From: an uncultured Chloroflexia bacterium | GTDB taxonomy: Bacteria; Chloroflexota; Dehalococcoidia; DSTF01; JALHUB01 | Assembly (NCBI GenBank): GCA_963703345.1 | Contig: OY969814.1 | Location: 704,001-768,000, forward strand | DNA length: 64,000 nucleotides | Direction of reading: 5' to 3' | Shown: piece by piece, positions 37,731-61,710 of the stretch | Layout of the letters: each line of letters opens with the position of its first letter | Numbering within the stretch: the stretch's first letter is position 1 | The notes under the pieces: generated by a model | What the model was told of the DNA's origin: nothing | Seen by the model: the letters and a program-made list of their open reading frames with translations, nothing else | Database searches by the model: none | Made by a program: the position numbers and the translations under genes

Positions 37731-37787
37731 CTACGTCGGAGCGCCCATGATATCCGTCCCCCTTTCAAGCGAAGGTACTCGGATCGA

Positions 37788-37898
37788 ACAGGGGCGGGTA
37801 TCCTGGCTCGTCGGTCAACGCCGACTTACAGTTGCGCGACAGCGCCGGACTCTCACCGGCTTCCCCCGACATGATCCGCCCGCGGCGGACCCCCCTGT
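37788..37898 (-). ncRNA. Cobalamin riboswitch
   Basis: Minus strand GGGAA-GCCGGTGAGAGTCCGGC-GCTGTCGCGCAACTGT...GAGCCAGGA (B12 box), upstream of the ECF operon. Confidence 0.92.
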
Positions 37899-38103
37899 CG
37901 GCCCCCTATGTGGTTGTTACCGCCAATGTACCAGCCGCTGCGGCCGCCCGTCAACCGCGACGCCGCGACCCCATCGACGGCCCTCTTCCGGCCGTCCGCC
38001 TCAATTCGCCGAATCTACGCCATCCGAAGTAGGGGAGTCTGTGAGCCGAAGTAGGTGATTGTCTGATTCTTCGGCGACACCCGCTCCTGGATAATGGCCG
38101 CTT

Positions 38104-42416: not shown

Positions 42417-42519
42417 AATTATGCGCTATTCGGCTAACGCGTGAAGAGTCGATAACTGTGCGTTTTCGTTGGGGGGCTGCAAGTCTAGCGGACAGCGGGG
42501 AGAGCGGGCTGTTTGGGAA
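42417..42519 (+). repeat. Direct repeat 'L', copy 2
   Basis: Homologous to 41297-41400; runs into element R through the shared TTGGGAA core. Confidence 0.92.
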
Positions 42520-42803
42520 GCAGCTGCTCCACCAGTCAAGCTGCGGCTAACCCTTCGAGTGCCGCGAACCCCTTACAACTCCTCCCCCGCTCTGCTATCC
42601 TGACCTCACACCCTTCGGAAGGCCACCCGACGCTATGCACATGACACCCTCGCTCCCGCCCGCTTGCCCGTCCGGGCTCGCCCATCGACGCGCCCCGCCG
42701 CCCCGGCGACTGCGCATTTTTGCGCAACTCCTCAGATTCAAACCGACACCATCCAGATTCAAGCAACAACGCAAAAAATAATTGAATTCAATGGGTCAAT
42801 TAA
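42513..42803 (+). repeat. Dispersed element 'R', copy A (antisense degenerate tRNA-Gly half, sigma70-like promoter, AT-rich palindromic end)
   Basis: ccttacaactcctcccccgctctgctatcctgac...aattgaattcaatgggtcaatta; homologous to the reverse complements of 52956-53199 and 58852-59175. Confidence 0.9.
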
Positions 42804-52822: not shown

Positions 52823-52955
52823 CGACCAAAGAAGCGTCGCGATCTCCCGACCGTTCGGACGGGAGGGCGCCGGCGTCAACGATGATAGCAGACGGCCGCG
52901 AAGGTGTCGAGGCGGAACCGGCGCTCGGGGTGGGAGGCGATGGCCTGCGGTGTCG

Positions 52956-53199
52956 CCTAATTGACCCATTGAATTCAATTGTTTCTTGCGTTGTCTTCTG
53001 AATCTGGATGATGTCGGTCTGAATCTGCGAAAGTGGCGCAAAAGTGCGCGTTTTGGGGCGTCGCGGAAAGCGGAGGCGAGGTGTCCCAGATCCGGACAAG
53101 GTGAACGGGCGGACGGAGTGCATGGCGTCGAAGGCCTTTCGGGAGTTGTCGGAGGTGAGGATAGCAGAGGCGAGGGGGATTTGGAAGCGGCTGGTGGCA
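52956..53199 (-). repeat. Dispersed element 'R', copy B (lacks the tRNA half; abuts the ATPase stop codon)
   Basis: Reverse complement ctctgctatcct...atgcac...cagattcagaccgacatcatccagattc...aattgaattcaatgggtcaatta aligns with copy A. Confidence 0.88.
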
Positions 53200-55683
53200 C
53201 TAAGGAGACTGCCGCTTCTTGAGGTTCCAAGACGTGCCCCCGCAATTGCATCGAACTGCTTCTTGGACTCGGCTCTCAGGCGAAACAACGACATGCAACA
53301 TTCCCTCGCATTGAGCACATCTGAACAGGTTCCAGAGGTCGTGAAATGCGTCCGCAACAACCCGGAAGTCCGCAGGGCTCAAGTTGTGCCAATTGTTATA
53401 GTGCACGCTAGCGTCAACCTGCCACATGTCAGCTCCAGATCTGCGCTTGACATCCGCAGCGGTCGCCTCAAGGACACCGAGACTCTGGATCCGGTCCCTG
53501 TCGTCCCACGAGTTCGCAGCGTCCTTTGCCGTCCTGACTAATGCACCGTGACGCTCTAACGCGGGGGGTAACAGGTCACCCAGCTCCCAGTTGGCACGAG
53601 GCTTGCACACAACTCGTGCCAAAAGAGATTCGCACGCGAGGGTAAAGAACTGCTCGGACGCCCGGCGCAGTTCAGAGGCCGCATCGGGGATCTGGTTGCG
53701 CTCGATATGTTGCTCTATGTGCAGCCACGTGTCGAGATTATTGTCCCATTTGGGTCCGGTCTGAACATTCCAGCCGAAGAACTCGACGAGATTGCGTTGC
53801 GCGACTACACCCTCACTCCTCAATGAGAAAGCCCAACTCCTATCGTGTGTCGTGATAAGGAACTGTCTGTCAGGGAACTCCGTAGCGAGCACTCTACAGA
53901 TCTCTCTCCTGTGACCCTCGTCGACCGACGTCACTATGTCGTCCAAGACGACTAGATCGATGAGGCCTGCGGTGAGCCGCTCCGCGAGGGCCAGGTAAAG
54001 GCACAAGCCCATGCTGTCCTGATGCCCTTCGCTGTGAAGGGCCTGAGGCGGATATTGTCCAAGACCGTAAAAGTCGACCGCCAGTTTGAGGGCTGCACCA
54101 GCCGGTTCGAGTTTAGCATCGAATGTGCCCTCGTCGTCTTTGTGCAATTGACGGTAGAGCGCGACGAAGCGGTCCTTGATTTCGTCATAGAGTTTGCTTA
54201 GGACTTCGTTTCGGGCAGCCTCAAAACATTCAAGAAGCACGCCCGCTTTGCCTTCAGCCGCTGTTATGCGCGCAAGGTAGGCCTCGGAGCTTTCGAGGAC
54301 CTTTGCATTGCTTTCCAATGTGGTCAGAGTATCCCAGGCGGTCCACTCTGGCGGTGTCTCCGGGCAACAACTGCTTACGGCATCTTCAACAAGGCCCACC
54401 GTTGCGGCGGCTTCAGGGGGGGCAAACAATCGCATGACGGCAAACTCGCTCTCTGAAAGCCGCTCATACTCTTCCACTGGAGACTCCAGCGCGGTCAGGA
54501 ATTCATTGAGTTTCGATTGCCACGTAACTAAAGGCTGACATTTCGTCTCGATGCCCAAGTTGCGCGCTGGTGCTAAGAGAACCTGTATATTGGCAGCAGC
54601 CACTTGCACTGGCCCAACGAGAGAGTCGCTCAGTTCGTCAATCGTCTTCTGTTGGTCCGCAGCGAGCCTCGCTTGAGAAAGCCTCCGTTCTAGGTGCTTG
54701 CGCAGTTCGTCCTCGGGCCAAGGCGTTTCGCATAGGGGGCAAGCGCCGCTCTCATCGATAAGGTCGACGCCCATTTCGATCAACTGACGTACTGTCAAGT
54801 CACGGCGCATCTGCGCATCTTCTCGGACCTGATTGACGGTTGCCAGAAGATTGCGCTGGGCCGTCACTAGGCGCTCTGCCGAATCGCCGGGATCCATCAA
54901 CGGCCTGAGACTAGCGATAGCGCGTTCAACTGCTTTGCGATCGATTGGTCTGCTCTCCGAGCTCGGCTTTGCTGGTGGCACCAGTGCGCCTTTCAGAGTT
55001 GTGCTGGAGAGTCGCTCTATCGCTTGGCCGCCCAAAGCGACCCGGAGTTCGTTAGCGCGCTTCAGGACAGCTTCACCGTTGTAGAGTGGTAGCCCAAGAG
55101 TGGCTGCGATGGTTGCCCGCCCGCGGCCAACCTCTTTTTTCAGCGATGATATTTGGTCTTCGAGTTGGCGTCTTGCGTTGACCAGTGCACGGCGAACTTC
55201 CTCTACCTCTGAAATGTTCAGCAACCTTTGAACTTGCTCGCCTCGCTCCCCTGCACGGGATGTGACGTATCTGTGCAGCTCCCGGCGGGTAAGAACATAT
55301 TGTCCCCTCTTCGCAACAGATAGGACTCTGTCAACGAAGGGCCGAACCGCCTCATCGCAGTCCAGGCTACGTGGCGAAGCCATGTTTCGTGAGATCGTTA
55401 CCTCGATCGGTTGGGAATCGCCCTGTATCAGAAGCCGGGCTCTCACAGTGGCTTGTGATAGCTCGTGGCCCGCATGGGGTCCGTGTTCCTCAAGCGAGAC
55501 GCCTTCTGTGCCAGCGCCGGTAAGCCGCGATATCTGGCCTGTGAGCAAGAAATCAAGGGCGTCAACAACGCCACTCTTCCCGCATCCGTTGGGTCCCCAG
55601 ATGACAAGGTTTCTGCCTTCCGCCTGAAGCGGTAGTGCGCATATCCCGCGAACGTTCTCGACCGCCAGCTCAAGGAGTCTCAT
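53200..55683 (-). CDS. Rad50/SMC-like ABC ATPase with zinc hook and C-terminal extension (RloC-like candidate)
   Basis: Walker A GPNGCGKS, coiled coils, CPLC hook, signature HSEGH, Walker B VVLDD, ITTHD; C-terminal LRRASE...VHYNNW plus CAQC/CNC; atypical codon usage. Confidence 0.8.
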   Translation of the reverse strand: MRLLELAVENVRGICALPLQAEGRNLVIWGPNGCGKSGVVDALDFLLTGQISRLTGAGTEGVSLEEHGPHAGHELSQATVRARLLIQGDSQPIEVTISRNMASPRSLDCDEAVRPFVDRVLSVAKRGQYVLTRRELHRYVTSRAGERGEQVQRLLNISEVEEVRRALVNARRQLEDQISSLKKEVGRGRATIAATLGLPLYNGEAVLKRANELRVALGGQAIERLSSTTLKGALVPPAKPSSESRPIDRKAVERAIASLRPLMDPGDSAERLVTAQRNLLATVNQVREDAQMRRDLTVRQLIEMGVDLIDESGACPLCETPWPEDELRKHLERRLSQARLAADQQKTIDELSDSLVGPVQVAAANIQVLLAPARNLGIETKCQPLVTWQSKLNEFLTALESPVEEYERLSESEFAVMRLFAPPEAAATVGLVEDAVSSCCPETPPEWTAWDTLTTLESNAKVLESSEAYLARITAAEGKAGVLLECFEAARNEVLSKLYDEIKDRFVALYRQLHKDDEGTFDAKLEPAGAALKLAVDFYGLGQYPPQALHSEGHQDSMGLCLYLALAERLTAGLIDLVVLDDIVTSVDEGHRREICRVLATEFPDRQFLITTHDRSWAFSLRSEGVVAQRNLVEFFGWNVQTGPKWDNNLDTWLHIEQHIERNQIPDAASELRRASEQFFTLACESLLARVVCKPRANWELGDLLPPALERHGALVRTAKDAANSWDDRDRIQSLGVLEATAADVKRRSGADMWQVDASVHYNNWHNLSPADFRVVADAFHDLWNLFRCAQCEGMLHVVVSPESRVQEAVRCNCGGTSWNLKKRQSP

Positions 55684-55867
55684 GATCGGTGCCTCCCTTT
55701 TTCAACAATGCGACCAGTAGCTCGGGCTTGCGAAACCCGCCCGAACCGGCCAGATCCACTAAGGCCTCGATCTCGCTGGGTTGGAAGACTTTGCGACGTT
55801 CAACTAGATCAAGCGTCTTAGCTAGGATTTGGGAGGGGAGGGATGGAGGAATGTCTTGATCAGCCAT
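55670..55867 (-). CDS. Small protein translationally coupled to the ATPase
   Basis: AAGGAGA RBS; 65 aa; its 3' end overlaps the ATPase start. Confidence 0.7.
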   Translation of the reverse strand: MADQDIPPSLPSQILAKTLDLVERRKVFQPSEIEALVDLAGSGGFRKPELLVALLKKGGTDHETP

Positions 55868-56382: not shown

Positions 56383-56631
56383 TTCAGTACTCCTTCTTTT
56401 CTCAGTCTCTTACCGACCTTTCAATATAGAGCGGCGGGATGCCGGAAGCGTGATTCGCCCGTTGACGCCCGTGAAGGAAGCGTGAAGAACGCCCGACCGA
56501 CGCGCCCGGCGCGGCCGCCGCTGTAACGGCGTTCGACGGCGGCCGTTCTTCTTTAGTGGGAGAGGCAGCAGCCTATCCCAGGACAGTCTGTTGAGGCGCT
56601 GAACCGAGGGCATGCCTCCCTGTTGGGGGCG

Positions 56632-56700
56632 TGGCGGCAAGCTGCGGCGGGTCGCTTGGTCACCGAGACCCTCGGCGAGCCAGTGGTGAAACCGGCAACA
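56632..56700 (+). ncRNA. Candidate c-di-GMP-II-like riboswitch
   Basis: GCAAGCTG...GGGTC/GACCC stem with a TGGTCACC loop, followed by GAGCCAGTGGTGAAACCGGC (possible TCACC/GGTGA pseudoknot). Confidence 0.4.
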
Positions 56701-56801
56701 GCGGATCCGAGAGATCGGGTCGGGGAGTTGCCGGTTTCATGTTCTTTCCACTGCCGGGGTCAGCGCTAAAGAGACTGCGACGGCTCGCGCCTCGCCTTCT
56801 G

Positions 56802-57498: not shown

Positions 57499-58770
57499 CT
57501 AGGGCAGCGTCTTCTCCAGCAGGTGCGGGTCCGCCCGCGGTCCGACCAACGCCACAGCAACGTTGTCGCGGCGGAACAGACGCTTCGCTACGCGCCGGAC
57601 GTCGTCGCTGGTGATCGCCTGTAGCTTGGCGACCACGTCCTCGATCTGCTCGATCTCGCCCATCGTGACCAGGTTCTCGCCCGTCCACTGCGTCAGCGCC
57701 ATCGTCGTCTCCAGGCCAAGGCGGAAGTTGCCCACGGTGAAGTCGCGGGCGCGCGTCATCTCATCCTCCGGCACCGGCTCGTCGACAAGCTTGAACACCT
57801 GCTCCAGGATGACCTTGCCGGCCTCCTCCACCTTCTCCGGGCTGACGCCGGCGCTGACCGCCATGGAGCCCGTGTCGCGGTGGCGGCTGACCGACGACCC
57901 GATGGAGTAGGCAAGCCCGCGGCGCTCGCGCACCTCTTTGAAGAGGCGGGAGCTCATGCCGCGACCGAGCAGCGTGTTGAGGATGGTGAGGGCGTAGCGG
58001 TCCGGGTCGGTGCGGGAGAGGGCGCGCAGTCCGTACGCCAGGTTCGACTGGTCAGTCTCCCGCGACTCGACCTGCACGCGGTCCGGCGGCAGGCCCGGCG
58101 CCGCGGCCGCGATGGACGGGAGCGAGCGGCTCTCCAGATCGGCCGCCCTCTCCGCGATGAGCGCCAGCACCTGCTCGGCCGTCGTATTGCCGGCGACGGC
58201 GACGACGATGTTCTCCGGCGCGTACCACCTCTCGCGGTGCTCCAGGAAGTCGTCGCGCCTGATCCCCTCGACCGTCTCCTCCGTGCCCGCGATGGGCCAG
58301 CCGATGGGTTGGTCGCCGTAGCAGGCGCGGGAGAGCAACTCCGCCGTCCAGGCTGACGGCTGGTCGTGCGTGCGACGTATCTCCTGCTCAACCACCGTGC
58401 GCTCGCGGTCGATCTCGACGCTGTCTAGGAGCGGGTCGCGCACCATGTCCGCCAGGACGTCGATAGCCAGGTCCAGGCGGTCGTAGGGGACGTGCGCCCA
58501 GTAGCCGGTCATCTCCTTGTCGGTGAAGGCGTTGAGCGCGCCGCCGGCGCCTTCGATGGCCTCGGAGATCGCCTGGGCGCTGGGCCGCTTGGCGCTGCCC
58601 TTGAAGAGCATGTGCTCCAGATAGTGGCAGATGCCGTTGACGCGTCGGTCCTCCATGCGGGAGCCGACGCCGACGAAGATGCAGACGTTGGCCGATTGCG
58701 CCGTCGGCATGGGCGTGGTGACGACGCGGAGTCCGTTGTCCAGGGTATCGATCTGCCAGGTGGTGGTCAT
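57499..58770 (-). CDS. M16 (pitrilysin) family peptidase
   Basis: HYLEHMLFKG (HxxEH), LNAFT, MSSRLFKEVRERRGLAY. Confidence 0.95.
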   Translation of the reverse strand: MTTTWQIDTLDNGLRVVTTPMPTAQSANVCIFVGVGSRMEDRRVNGICHYLEHMLFKGSAKRPSAQAISEAIEGAGGALNAFTDKEMTGYWAHVPYDRLDLAIDVLADMVRDPLLDSVEIDRERTVVEQEIRRTHDQPSAWTAELLSRACYGDQPIGWPIAGTEETVEGIRRDDFLEHRERWYAPENIVVAVAGNTTAEQVLALIAERAADLESRSLPSIAAAAPGLPPDRVQVESRETDQSNLAYGLRALSRTDPDRYALTILNTLLGRGMSSRLFKEVRERRGLAYSIGSSVSRHRDTGSMAVSAGVSPEKVEEAGKVILEQVFKLVDEPVPEDEMTRARDFTVGNFRLGLETTMALTQWTGENLVTMGEIEQIEDVVAKLQAITSDDVRRVAKRLFRRDNVAVALVGPRADPHLLEKTLP

Positions 58771-58851
58771 GGGTCCCTCCAAAGACGAGAGTGGTGTTCC
58801 TCCTCATCATAATGCAGAGAGGCGTGCGCAGTCATGCCGCCGCAGCCGCGT

Positions 58852-59175
58852 CTAATTGACCAATTGAATTCAATTGTTTTTCGTGGTGCTTTCCGAACCT
58901 GAACGAGGGTGGTGTGAATCCCTACGGGCAGGCTGGGAATGGCGCGAAATGGCGTCGAAAAGGGGCGAAACGGGGCCGAAAGGGGTCGCTGGCGCGTCGA
59001 CGTGCGCTGTGGCCCTACGGGCGGGTTGGCCGGGGTGAGGTTGTTGGTGCATGGGGTTGGCGGCCTCCGAAGGCTCTCTCAAGTCAGGATAGCAGAGCGG
59101 GGGAGGAGTTGTAAGGGATTGGTGACACCCGGAAGGGTGCGCGGCAGCCCAGTTGATAGAGCATCCGCTTCCCAA
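58852..59175 (-). repeat. Dispersed element 'R', copy C (with degenerate tRNA-Gly(CCC) 5' half at 59138-59175 on the + strand)
   Basis: Shares the exact segment ccttacaactcctcccccgctctgctatcctgac and the aattgaattcaat.ggtcaatta end with copy A. Confidence 0.9.
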
Positions 59176-59347: not shown

Positions 59348-59376
59348 TTGACAAAATCTCCAAGCAGGCATAGAAT
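59348..59376 (+). promoter_or_regulatory. Sigma70-type promoter of the SDH-PIN operon
   Basis: TTGACA-17 bp-TAGAAT. Confidence 0.75.
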
Positions 59377-59491
59377 ACGCAAACGCAGGATCCGAACGGA
59401 GTTCGGATCCTGCGTGGAACTCCTCGCCAAGTGTATTTGCCAGTCACACCCGCGCTCTTCCTAACCGACAGAATCAGAGGCAAGAGGGAAT

Positions 59492-60592
59492 ATGTCTGTA
59501 CGGCAGCGGTGGGACGCCATACGGAAACTCGAAGAGATACGCTCGTCCCGAGTTCTGGTCTATTTCCTGAGCGACCGGCGGGTTGCCCTTGGCGTGCCCG
59601 TGCCCGGTGTTAGTGCCCAACTTGGTGGGGACGCTTACCCGTTCCTTTATGAGCACATCCGCTCCTTCGGTCAGCCGCAGAGATTGGATTTGTTCTTGCA
59701 CACTGCTGGAGGTCATCTCGATGCAGTCTGGCCGCTGGTGCAGCTTCTTCGCTCCGCCACGAAGCAGTTTTGCGTCATAGTGCCGATGAGCGCGCTCAGC
59801 GGGGGGACTTTGATCTGCTTGGGTGCGGATAAGATCGTGATGACCGTGCCTGCACATCTCAGCCCAGTCGACCCGTCAACCGCCAATGTCTTCAATCCAA
59901 TGGAAGGAAATCAGAAGATTCCGATTAGCGTGGAGGACGTCACTTCTTACCTAGACCTTGCGCGAGGAGGGGAGGATTCGGACGACCGTGCCAGCGCCGG
60001 GTTGACAGCAGATGAGCATATCGTTCAGGTATTCAAAATCCTTGCAGATAAGGTTCATCCTCTGGCGCTAGGAAACGTGAAGCGGGTCTACAAACAGATT
60101 CGAGACATAAGTAGAAAGCTGCTGGAACTTCATCTGACTGGAGATGCGGCGGATATTCGGATTGATAAAATTGTGAAGACGCTGACGCAGGGGCTGCAGT
60201 CGCATTCCCACCTAATCGGCCGGACTGAAGCGACCGATATTTTGGGAAAGGAGATCGTCGCTGCGCCATCTAAGGAGGAAGAAGCAGCGATATGGGGACT
60301 GTTCAACCTATATGAAGAACGCTTTGATCTGCGGAAGACCTTCTCGGTCAAGGAGTGGCTCGGAGGCGATGTCGAGAAGGACTACGACGCTCTGGGCGGT
60401 GCTATCGAAAGTGCTGACCTTTCGCATTTCTTCCGGGCAAAGAGCACGATCAGGCAAATATCACAGTTGCCGCAGGGAGTTCAGATTCAAATCCCCCCCG
60501 GCCAACGGATGCCATTAGTGCCAGGCTTGCCGGTAGGTATCAACATTGAACCTGTTTCGGAGGGCTGGTACACTAACAGTGAAGGAGATTAG
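59492..60592 (+). CDS. SDH family Clp-fold serine protease
   Basis: LDLFLHTAGG, ALSGGTLICLGAD (nucleophile Ser), LSPVDP (Asp), HPLALG, SHSHLI (His). Confidence 0.85.
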   Translation: MSVRQRWDAIRKLEEIRSSRVLVYFLSDRRVALGVPVPGVSAQLGGDAYPFLYEHIRSFGQPQRLDLFLHTAGGHLDAVWPLVQLLRSATKQFCVIVPMSALSGGTLICLGADKIVMTVPAHLSPVDPSTANVFNPMEGNQKIPISVEDVTSYLDLARGGEDSDDRASAGLTADEHIVQVFKILADKVHPLALGNVKRVYKQIRDISRKLLELHLTGDAADIRIDKIVKTLTQGLQSHSHLIGRTEATDILGKEIVAAPSKEEEAAIWGLFNLYEERFDLRKTFSVKEWLGGDVEKDYDALGGAIESADLSHFFRAKSTIRQISQLPQGVQIQIPPGQRMPLVPGLPVGINIEPVSEGWYTNSEGD

Positions 60593-60596
60593 TGGC

Positions 60597-60821
60597 ATGC
60601 AGGGCGAAGACATATACAGCAGTTTGATCAATATGTACGATGCTCGCATGGTCAGGAGTACAAACGCCTCGGACGCATCGTTCTGTTTTGGCAACAACGT
60701 GCTTGTCCCGTCAGATGAAGCCGCGGCAGACCCCCACCTCACTGGCAAGACGTTGCGTGTTGTTGACGGCCAATTGTTCGTCGTCGATCCCGGATCCCCG
60801 CCTTCCTCTGACAATCAGTAG
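60597..60821 (+). CDS. Small hypothetical protein (74 aa)
   Basis: GAAGGAG RBS; ATG 4 nt after the protease stop; MQGEDIYSSL... Confidence 0.6.
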   Translation: MQGEDIYSSLINMYDARMVRSTNASDASFCFGNNVLVPSDEAAADPHLTGKTLRVVDGQLFVVDPGSPPSSDNQ

Positions 60822-60848
60822 GTAATCGCCCGAAGTATCGCAGTACCC

Positions 60849-61298
60849 GTGCGTGGCGCTTTTGTCTCTGGCGTGCCGGGCACGCTTTACGAGCGTGCCG
60901 TCATGATGGATACGTCCGCCTACCTTGGACTCAAGGAGGATCATCAGGACGTCATCCTGTGCTCGCATTCCGTTTCTGCTACGCGGCTCCCGAAGTACGT
61001 CAGCTCCATGGTCGTCGCAGAAACGCACCGACGGCTTCTGTACGATTATGGGCGGAAGGCGGCGTTGGACTTCCTCCGAGACCTCTATGCCAATGACACC
61101 ACGATTGTCCGTCCGGATCGTCATGATGAAGACGAGGCCATTCGCATGTTGAAGCAGTATCGGGAACATCGCATTAGCCTTTGCGACGCCCTAACCTTCG
61201 CACTTATGCTGCGTCTTGGCATTAAGCGTGCCTTCACCCTCGACTGCAATCACTTCTGGACAATTGGCTTCACCGTGATTCCGCCGTTCGACCTTTAA
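60849..61298 (+). CDS. PIN-domain (VapC-like) ribonuclease
   Basis: MDTSA, VVAET, SLCDA, AFTLD..HF acidic tetrad. Confidence 0.88.
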   Translation: MRGAFVSGVPGTLYERAVMMDTSAYLGLKEDHQDVILCSHSVSATRLPKYVSSMVVAETHRRLLYDYGRKAALDFLRDLYANDTTIVRPDRHDEDEAIRMLKQYREHRISLCDALTFALMLRLGIKRAFTLDCNHFWTIGFTVIPPFDL

Positions 61299-61397: not shown

Positions 61398-61426
61398 TTG
61401 ACAACGGGTTGCGCGGCCGCTATACT
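61398..61426 (+). promoter_or_regulatory. Sigma70-type promoter of the ilv leader
   Basis: TTGACA-17 bp-TATACT. Confidence 0.8.
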
Positions 61427-61442
61427 GAATCGCACATAAGAC

Positions 61443-61710
61443 AAAGGCCGTGATGGGGAGTAGTAAGGCCAGCTTCCTGTCTCAGAGAGCCGGCATTCTG
61501 GTGAGAGCCGGCGACACGAAGAGCCCCAACTCGCCCCGGAGCCGCCGGACTCAGTCCACCTGAGGCGGATGTACCCAGACGGGTGCACCCGGACGGGTGC
61601 AGGCCCGGACGGAAAGCGACCGTTATCGCGCTGAAACCGGTTCGCCTGAGGCGAACAAAAAGGGTGGTACGGTCCCGTCCCATGGGATCCCTTTGGGACG
61701 GGTCTTTTCT
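61443..61710 (+). ncRNA. T-box leader with terminator (probable Leu CTC specifier)
   Basis: AGAGA and GGTGAGA stem I motifs, CTC at 61530, CCGTTA, AGGGTGGTAC T-box at 61661, cccgtccca/tgggacggg hairpin plus TCTTTTCT. Confidence 0.88.

Follow-up and report, generated by a model that had tools for sequence, protein, structure and literature searches.

A mobile SDH protease–small protein–PIN ribonuclease unit from a Chloroflexota bacterium and many other uncultured bacteria: a candidate protease-gated toxin–antitoxin module

Introduction

Can a type II toxin be placed under the control of a protease of its own? The question is raised by three adjacent genes in the stretch of DNA analysed here (the window, 64,000 nucleotides from an uncultured Chloroflexia bacterium), which encode an SDH-type serine protease, a 74 amino acid protein and a PIN ribonuclease. 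There is dispute over the way in which antitoxins let go of type II toxins, and a module that combines a transferable tag with a protease of its own would make the question directly testable with three small genes. Antitoxin cleavage under stress is described in a 2023 review as being without experimental evidence (PMC10532202).

An initial annotation of the locus proposed that a dedicated protease senses a trigger, such as a phage protein, and cleaves the small protein to unleash the nuclease. Our own reading, which we regard as evenly poised between right and wrong, is that the three genes, which form a conserved mobile unit, work as a protease-gated type II toxin–antitoxin module. The small protein would keep the PIN ribonuclease inactive, probably by binding it; following a trigger, cleavage at an S-T-A-type tag of the small protein would be carried out by the dedicated SDH protease; and loss of the antitoxin would free the PIN to stop translation, perhaps as a form of abortive phage defence.

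The locus and its setting

The window's genome is a single contig of 2.28 Mb with a GC content of 64%, and the closest named relative of the locus among the matches listed is a Dehalococcoidia bacterium (L001). The cassette occupies a slot between an M16 peptidase gene and a T-box-led ilvB gene, in which element R, a tRNA fragment, a promoter-like site, a hairpin and the three ORFs follow one another in this order:

57499–58782, minus strand: M16 peptidase gene, the upstream flank of the cassette
58849–59127, plus strand: element R, a dispersed non-coding repeat of ~250 bp with its core in 13 copies in the window's genome
59138–59176, plus strand: decayed 5' part of tRNA-Gly(CCC), by sequence identity, stopping at the anticodon loop
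59348–59376, plus strand: sigma-70-type promoter-like site TTGACA-17-TAGAAT, 11/12 consensus match, kept in L081
59383–59415, no strand assigned: 15-bp inverted repeat, perfect and with 3 nt in its loop, where transcription probably starts
59492–60592, plus strand: SDH-type ClpP-fold serine protease, 366 amino acids (Pfam SDH_protease, 62.8 bits, cut-off 31.3)
60597–60821, plus strand: 74 amino acid partner protein, AAGGAG ahead of its ATG
60849–61298, plus strand: PIN/VapC ribonuclease, 149 amino acids (Pfam PIN, 34.8 bits, cut-off 23.6)

Several features claimed in the initial annotation are borne out here. The three plus-strand ORFs (366, 74 and 149 amino acids) stand in tight series, with gaps of 4 and 27 nt, and their composition is foreign: GC is 54–56% and GC3 0.60–0.67, whereas the M16 peptidase and ilvB genes on either side have 66–69% and 0.91–0.93. 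The consensus promoter ascribed to the unit was found as a promoter-like site, of a kind that occurs 4 times in 5 kb versus 1.1 times in shuffled sequence. The tRNA-like core noted beside element R is the decayed 5' part of tRNA-Gly(CCC): 27 of the 30 positions at 59146–59175 agree with the tRNA-Gly(CCC) of this genome and likewise with its perfect 5' duplicate, which lies ~4.5 kb ahead of the tRNA. The fragment is likely to be an attachment-site relic. The 15-bp inverted repeat is a candidate 5' hairpin or operator; as a conserved operator it can be ruled out, since of the triad loci examined L081 alone retains it. All three ORFs appear to be under purifying selection, dN/dS against L081 being 0.07 for the protease, 0.22 for the small protein and 0.09 for the PIN (rough values, with synonymous sites near saturation).

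Element R also lies at 52954–53200 and about 42513–42802 of the window, with 10 further copies in the genome. Its core reads AATTGACC.ATTGAATTCAATT, and its far end is conserved too. Low-GC cargo often adjoins the copies, two of which are followed by decayed tRNA-Gly 5' parts, and the element is possibly a non-autonomous mobile element or a cargo-capture site. In L081, the closest relative, element R is again found directly upstream of the cassette at a different chromosomal site: the two together are 77% identical in DNA over 2.1 kb and sit between different flanking genes. The M16–ilvB slot was fetched from 10 relatives; it is empty in four (G404, G401, G409, G270), holds other cargo in four (G402, with element R in the slot, G058, G332 and G392) and gave no ilvB match in the stretch in the remaining two. 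The cassette is mobile.

Other features of the surroundings can be noted. The slot in G332 is occupied by a DUF5678-like and retropepsin-like gene pair (L229, 5922–7165); one similar to it lies after an SDH protease elsewhere (L036, 7067–7936). The perfect tRNA-Gly(CCC) 5' duplicate and the intact gene enclose an island of ~4.5 kb (G000:C1 2237080–2241657) with signal-peptidase-like and TasA-like ORFs, as read by eye. Downstream of the cassette, 61398–61710 contains a second promoter-like site and the T-box leader of ilvB (Rfam 75.4 bits, E = 8e-16, under the gathering score of 93), whose antiterminator, GGGUGGU-ACGGU, departs from consensus; both belong to the core genome and lie outside the cassette. 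At 53200–55867, a low-GC gene on the minus strand encodes an 827 amino acid SMC/ABC-type ATPase with weak LmuB/PtuA-like PADLOC matches, has a 65 amino acid ORF upstream and adjoins element R and tRNA-Pro; a second defence island in this region is possible. A c-di-GMP-II-GAG riboswitch match (56583–56706) precedes a gene for a 287 amino acid protein with an HELGH motif, and a cobalamin riboswitch is located at 37776–37911.

The SDH protease

The first ORF is a member of the SDH family (PF01972), with a profile match above the curated cut-off. Its score of 74.5 bits against NCBIfam NF047768 does not reach the equivalog threshold (250 bits) and, judged by sequence, it represents a longer, divergent subfamily relative to that model. 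The AlphaFold model (pLDDT 90.9) resembles SppA, 1510-N and ClpP in fold. The catalytic Ser, Asp and His, intact as the initial annotation had it, correspond to S103, D127 and H238, and are kept in 168 of 168 SDH ORFs of at least 300 amino acids. The protein is predicted, from sequence and model, to be a protease with a ClpP/SppA fold and conserved Ser, Asp and His. No PDB sequence match was found for it, and the family is structurally unsolved.

Relatives of the protease are found in other settings. The closest viral structural matches of the model (m7a35baedd105) in BFVD are giant-virus SDH proteinases. A second, distant SDH protease of 309 amino acids is encoded in the window's genome (L175 4117–5348; G000:C1 about 1746116–1747347, minus strand), where it interrupts a stretch with a succinate dehydrogenase-like gene on one side and a fumarate hydratase-like gene on the other; a different, 95 amino acid ORF follows it, and the locus gave no PIN match. 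An archaeal group of slowly evolving SDH proteases has a fixed chromosomal context (L007, L009–L011, L013–L022, L024–L029 and related loci); no small plus-strand partner and no toxin was found at the loci of this group.

The PIN ribonuclease

The PIN ORF starts with GTG and has no clear ribosome-binding site. Its acidic motifs, also described as intact at the outset, comprise D21, E58, D113 and D132, invariant in 35 of 35 sequences. The nearest solved structures are those of VapC20 (E = 3.5e-20) and VapC26, toxins described as cleaving 23S rRNA at its sarcin–ricin loop (PMC5175351), and by analogy the same loop would be the target here.

VapC20-like PIN genes are present in 59 of 401 genomes of the class. 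Most of the best 29 non-self loci have an antitoxin-like neighbour that, read by eye, has an RHH/HTH/Phd-type start and a DPLWxIIG...HDxYL end. These 29 ordinary PINs branch apart from the triad PINs (support 95, quick tree). The triad PINs, in addition, commonly carry an N-terminal extension with an aliphatic and an aromatic residue at –8/–7, seen in 32 of 41 triad PINs versus 1 of 29 ordinary VapCs.

The small middle protein

No match to the 74 amino acid protein was found in Pfam, NCBIfam, PADLOC or PHROG, and the ESM Atlas gave no usable match either for it (P0002) or for a second member of its family (P0223). Its family is unnamed; a profile of the family searched against 1.84 billion representatives returned 264 matches at E 0.001. 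Among the 150 matches listed, nearly all are 60–115 amino acids long; four long matches of about 900–1200 amino acids and one of 142, being repeats or matching in part, were excluded before motifs were counted. In the family consensus, QLS(Y/F)STADIExxxF(Y/F)G is separated by a variable linker from a V(V/I)DGE hairpin and Pro-Pro, which PLTxxSGLF often follows. A tag of the form [ST]T[AG][DEQG] is present in 37 of 55 small proteins versus 1.3 in shuffles, and in 145 family members among the matches listed the T is kept in 89% and the A in 86%. The absence of an RHH, AbrB or Phd pattern, remarked on from the first, extends to the family: no Pfam match under E 0.05, to a DNA-binding domain or otherwise, was obtained in 37 members.

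In the window's own copy the sequence is RMVRSTNASDASFCFG, and the protein terminates behind Pro-Pro; tag and tail are thus both reduced. Its tag is degenerate (S21-T22-N23 against S-T-A-D/E in the family), as it is across the window's subclade, and it lacks the PLTxxSGLF-type C-terminal tail present in about 33 of 55 relatives. The family tail bears a weak likeness to the neutralising motif of VapB20-type antitoxins (hhalign probability 4.7%, E = 0.008). Modelled alone, with low confidence outside the hairpin (pLDDT 61), the protein is predicted to be disordered except for a beta-hairpin at residues 52–63, followed by Pro-Pro; this hairpin and the N-terminal extension of the PIN are candidate contact surfaces.

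Recurrence and co-divergence of the triad

Whether the three genes belong together was addressed by fetching 174 loci with relatives of the protease (the best 80 of 97 genomes, the best 80 of 534 metagenome contigs and 14 viral contigs), of which 148, with at least 800 nt downstream of the protease, were informative. A PIN of the same clade lies 200–450 nt after the protease in 42 of the 148, always with a small ORF between, and this ORF is profile-detected as the small protein in 39 and simply in place in the other three. The proportion of triads rises with protease identity, from 1/58 (under 36%) through 13/57 (36–40%) and 21/26 (40–45%) to 7/7 (45% or more); at 40% identity or above, 28 of 33 loci are triads. 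Chloroflexota, Acidobacteriota and Deltaproteobacteria are among the named hosts, and locus GC ranges from 33 to 68%. In a FastTree phylogeny of 129 proteases, which omits short ORFs and short contigs and keeps five members of an archaeal group, a single SDH clade of 46 (support 89) is made up of 43 triads, two loci where the small gene is present and an intact PIN ORF is lacking, and one swap of the toxin. The neighbourhood search suggested in the initial annotation, which took a non-conserved triad as refuting its proposal, thus yields a triad that recurs across phyla, and its parts co-diverge: SDH and PIN distances are strongly correlated over 38 loci (Mantel rho 0.78, with 0 of 2000 permutations as high), and the nearest neighbours of SDH and PIN are common to both in 25 of the 38.

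It might be objected that an orphan protease happens to stand beside an unrelated VapBC pair, VapC20-like genes being as common in the class as noted above. The recurrence of the triad, kept down to 34% protease identity, the co-divergence of SDH and PIN and the single clade holding 43 triads refute this explanation, which we consider barely credible; moreover, none of the 29 ordinary PIN loci, most of them with VapB-like neighbours and all on their separate branch, has an SDH gene within a 1.5-kb flank.

Against our reading, distances between small proteins are weakly related to those between proteases (rho 0.25) and those between PINs (rho 0.27). That SDH and PIN co-diverge so much more tightly with each other than either does with the small protein would suit a different arrangement, in which the PIN is a direct client of SDH, latent until bound or trimmed (its N-terminal extension being one possible site), while the small protein serves the protease as adaptor or inhibitor and is no antitoxin. 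The prevalence of that extension among triad PINs fits such a scheme, as does the lack of a VapB-like tail in the window's small protein. However, the SDH–PIN correlation shows co-inheritance and not by itself contact, short disordered proteins give noisy distances, and the small proteins of sister clades plainly carry antitoxin-like tails. We think it unlikely that the PIN is such a client. The protease-gated toxin–antitoxin reading, in which the small protein is likely to be both protease substrate and antitoxin, draws on those same sister clades.

Toxin swaps and toxin-free pairs

In non-triad SDH loci, the layout of a protease, a small Ser/Thr-rich ORF and a toxin recurs with other toxins. 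From 59 proteins picked by hand and eye out of 114 candidates and other lists, 22 downstream ORFs reach Pfam cut-offs, as PIN (16), PemK/MazF (5) or Fic (1); weaker cases include RelE-like, HicA/HicB-like and further PIN-like proteins. The small proteins of the sister clades are composed of an N-terminal tag and a toxin-specific, antitoxin-like tail. A profile built from 15 partners without a toxin, searched against 9,888 ORFs, matches the N-terminal part of toxin-linked partners at four loci: L048 (MazF, E = 1e-13), L067 (VapC, 1e-8), L066 (RelE-like by eye, 1e-4) and L080 (VapC, 3e-3). The proteases of these four form one clade (support 98), and their partners end in different tails, read by eye as MazE-like, RelB-like or DUF2281-like; in a neighbouring clade, the tail at L060 matches DUF2281 above cut-off and is the sole tail with a library match. 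Within the triad clade itself, L143 has MazF in place of the PIN; its partner, still weakly similar to that of the triad (E = 0.06), carries a new tail, which resembles the tail at L243, where a MazF-like ORF also follows the partner.

One tag preceding differing tails, taken with the swap at L143, indicates that the tag belongs to the protease and that toxins were joined to it several times via the fused neutralising end of an antitoxin. The small protein is clearly a partner of the SDH protease. The part of the initial proposal that stands is accordingly protease-linked control of a toxin, supported by antitoxin-like tails before several unrelated toxins in related clades. The protease as sensor and a phage protein as trigger found no support, and neither did neutralisation of the PIN by the window's own small protein, with its VapB-like tail absent and its tag degenerate. 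No fourth or sensor gene recurs in the triad loci scanned, so sensing would have to lie in the protease or in the small protein.

Tagged partners without a toxin are common, 34 rows of the tree being labelled small-only by eye, so the tag has some role besides toxin release; one related tag family occurs without a toxin, and the small protein may thus be an inhibitor of the protease beyond being its substrate. A cultured-host example of the two-gene form is found in an E. coli lambdoid prophage-like replicon (L237 3995–5162, NZ_CP081794.1), where a full-length SDH protease lies between Q and holin with an unannotated, overlapping 59 amino acid Ser/Thr-rich ORF beside it. Pairs of this kind, including the one in the Q–holin slot, lend themselves to a view of the small protein as a double antitoxin, inhibiting a protease that is toxic when free as well as blocking the PIN; if the labile small protein were lost (for instance in host shut-off), both would be freed, and the protease would amplify the switch without sensing anything. 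The naming of a two-gene SDH system, FS_HP_SDH_sah, among defence genes is in keeping with this, yet there is no sign here of protease toxicity, and the repeated fusion of tails to the tag is more simply explained by recruitment of toxins as cleavage outputs. A double antitoxin seems to us rather unlikely, and cleavage of an antitoxin by its dedicated protease remains the preferred account.

Extending that account, we suggest tentatively, and with some doubt, that SDH is a general plug-in switch: a tag replacing the DNA-binding domain of an antitoxin may put any type II toxin under a phage-triggered protease, making up an undescribed toxin–antitoxin–protease class of defence system. The toxins so covered might be several VapC groups, MazF, Fic/Doc and probably RelE and HicA, and the present triad, with its likely ribosome-cutting VapC, might be the largest such branch found here. 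The triad family, with its protease and tag, would give the SDH proteases their first candidate substrate motif, and would provide laboratory strains with a modular growth switch under protease control.

Defence or addiction

A role in phage defence is possible on grounds of context. Integrase, transposase, phage or restriction–modification genes neighbour about 14 of the 36 triad loci scanned (Pfam labels, hand-read), four of the 14 viral-contig loci carry the triad, and an SDH system figures in DefenseFinder output. More than half of the 36 loci have housekeeping surroundings and no defence neighbour, and these many solitary insertions, like the patchy distribution of the genes (a protease match in 25 of 401 genomes of the phylum, only 2 of the 25 loci being triads), would be expected of a selfish module for addiction or stress, using the same wiring to stabilise mobile DNA or to arrest growth and having no anti-phage role. 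Housekeeping Lon and Clp already suffice for plain addiction, for which a dedicated, invariant protease would be costly, and copies also occupy accessory positions in prophages and stand beside restriction genes. We hold a purely selfish or stress-related role to be distinctly unlikely, and continue to favour a protease-gated module with a possible part in defence.

Comparison with known systems

No PADLOC 2.0 model matches the three genes, and no description of an SDH–small protein–PIN system was found in the literature searched, though a supplement may contain one. The closest named system is FS_HP_SDH_sah, which reportedly originates from a PICI in work of Fillol-Salom et al. in 2022. Like the triad it pairs a protease of the SDH type with a partner that belongs to no known family; in gene content it differs in having two genes and no nuclease. 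It is listed as a two-gene DefenseFinder system among defence genes (PMC13532340). The mechanism proposed for the triad would suggest one for this system too.

With VapBC20 and VapBC26, the triad has in common the kinship of its PIN and a small gene that, within a single operon, lies directly upstream of the toxin. Unlike those pairs, its small protein has no RHH, HTH or Phd domain, no conserved operator and, in the window, no VapB20-type tail; its operon is headed by a dedicated protease, and its PINs form a group of their own with an N-terminal extension.

Two further systems have a comparable logic. TAC (HigBA–SecB) consists of three genes, and a short tag on its antitoxin ties it to a dedicated third protein. 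The triad likewise has three genes and a tag on the putative antitoxin that would link it to a dedicated third protein, but that protein is the chaperone SecB in TAC and a ClpP-fold protease with an invariant active site in the triad, whose tag is N-terminal and takes the place of a DNA-binding domain. In modules of the CalpL–CalpT–CalpS type, a protease cuts a small inhibitor or latent protein and an effector is released, as cleavage of the small protein would free the PIN in the proposal made here. The triad differs in having no SAVED, CRISPR, STAND or other sensor, in the clan of its protease and in its type II toxin output. No SAVED–Lon sensor protease domain was found in the protease or among 150 neighbours from 36 triad loci, and the main text of PMC12642450, which names CalpT, does not contain SDH, ClpP or PIN as whole words. 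The triad is thus likely to be an undescribed toxin system, and is probably best seen as a type II toxin–antitoxin-like pair with a dedicated third gene that falls outside both the TAC and the CalpL–CalpT groups.
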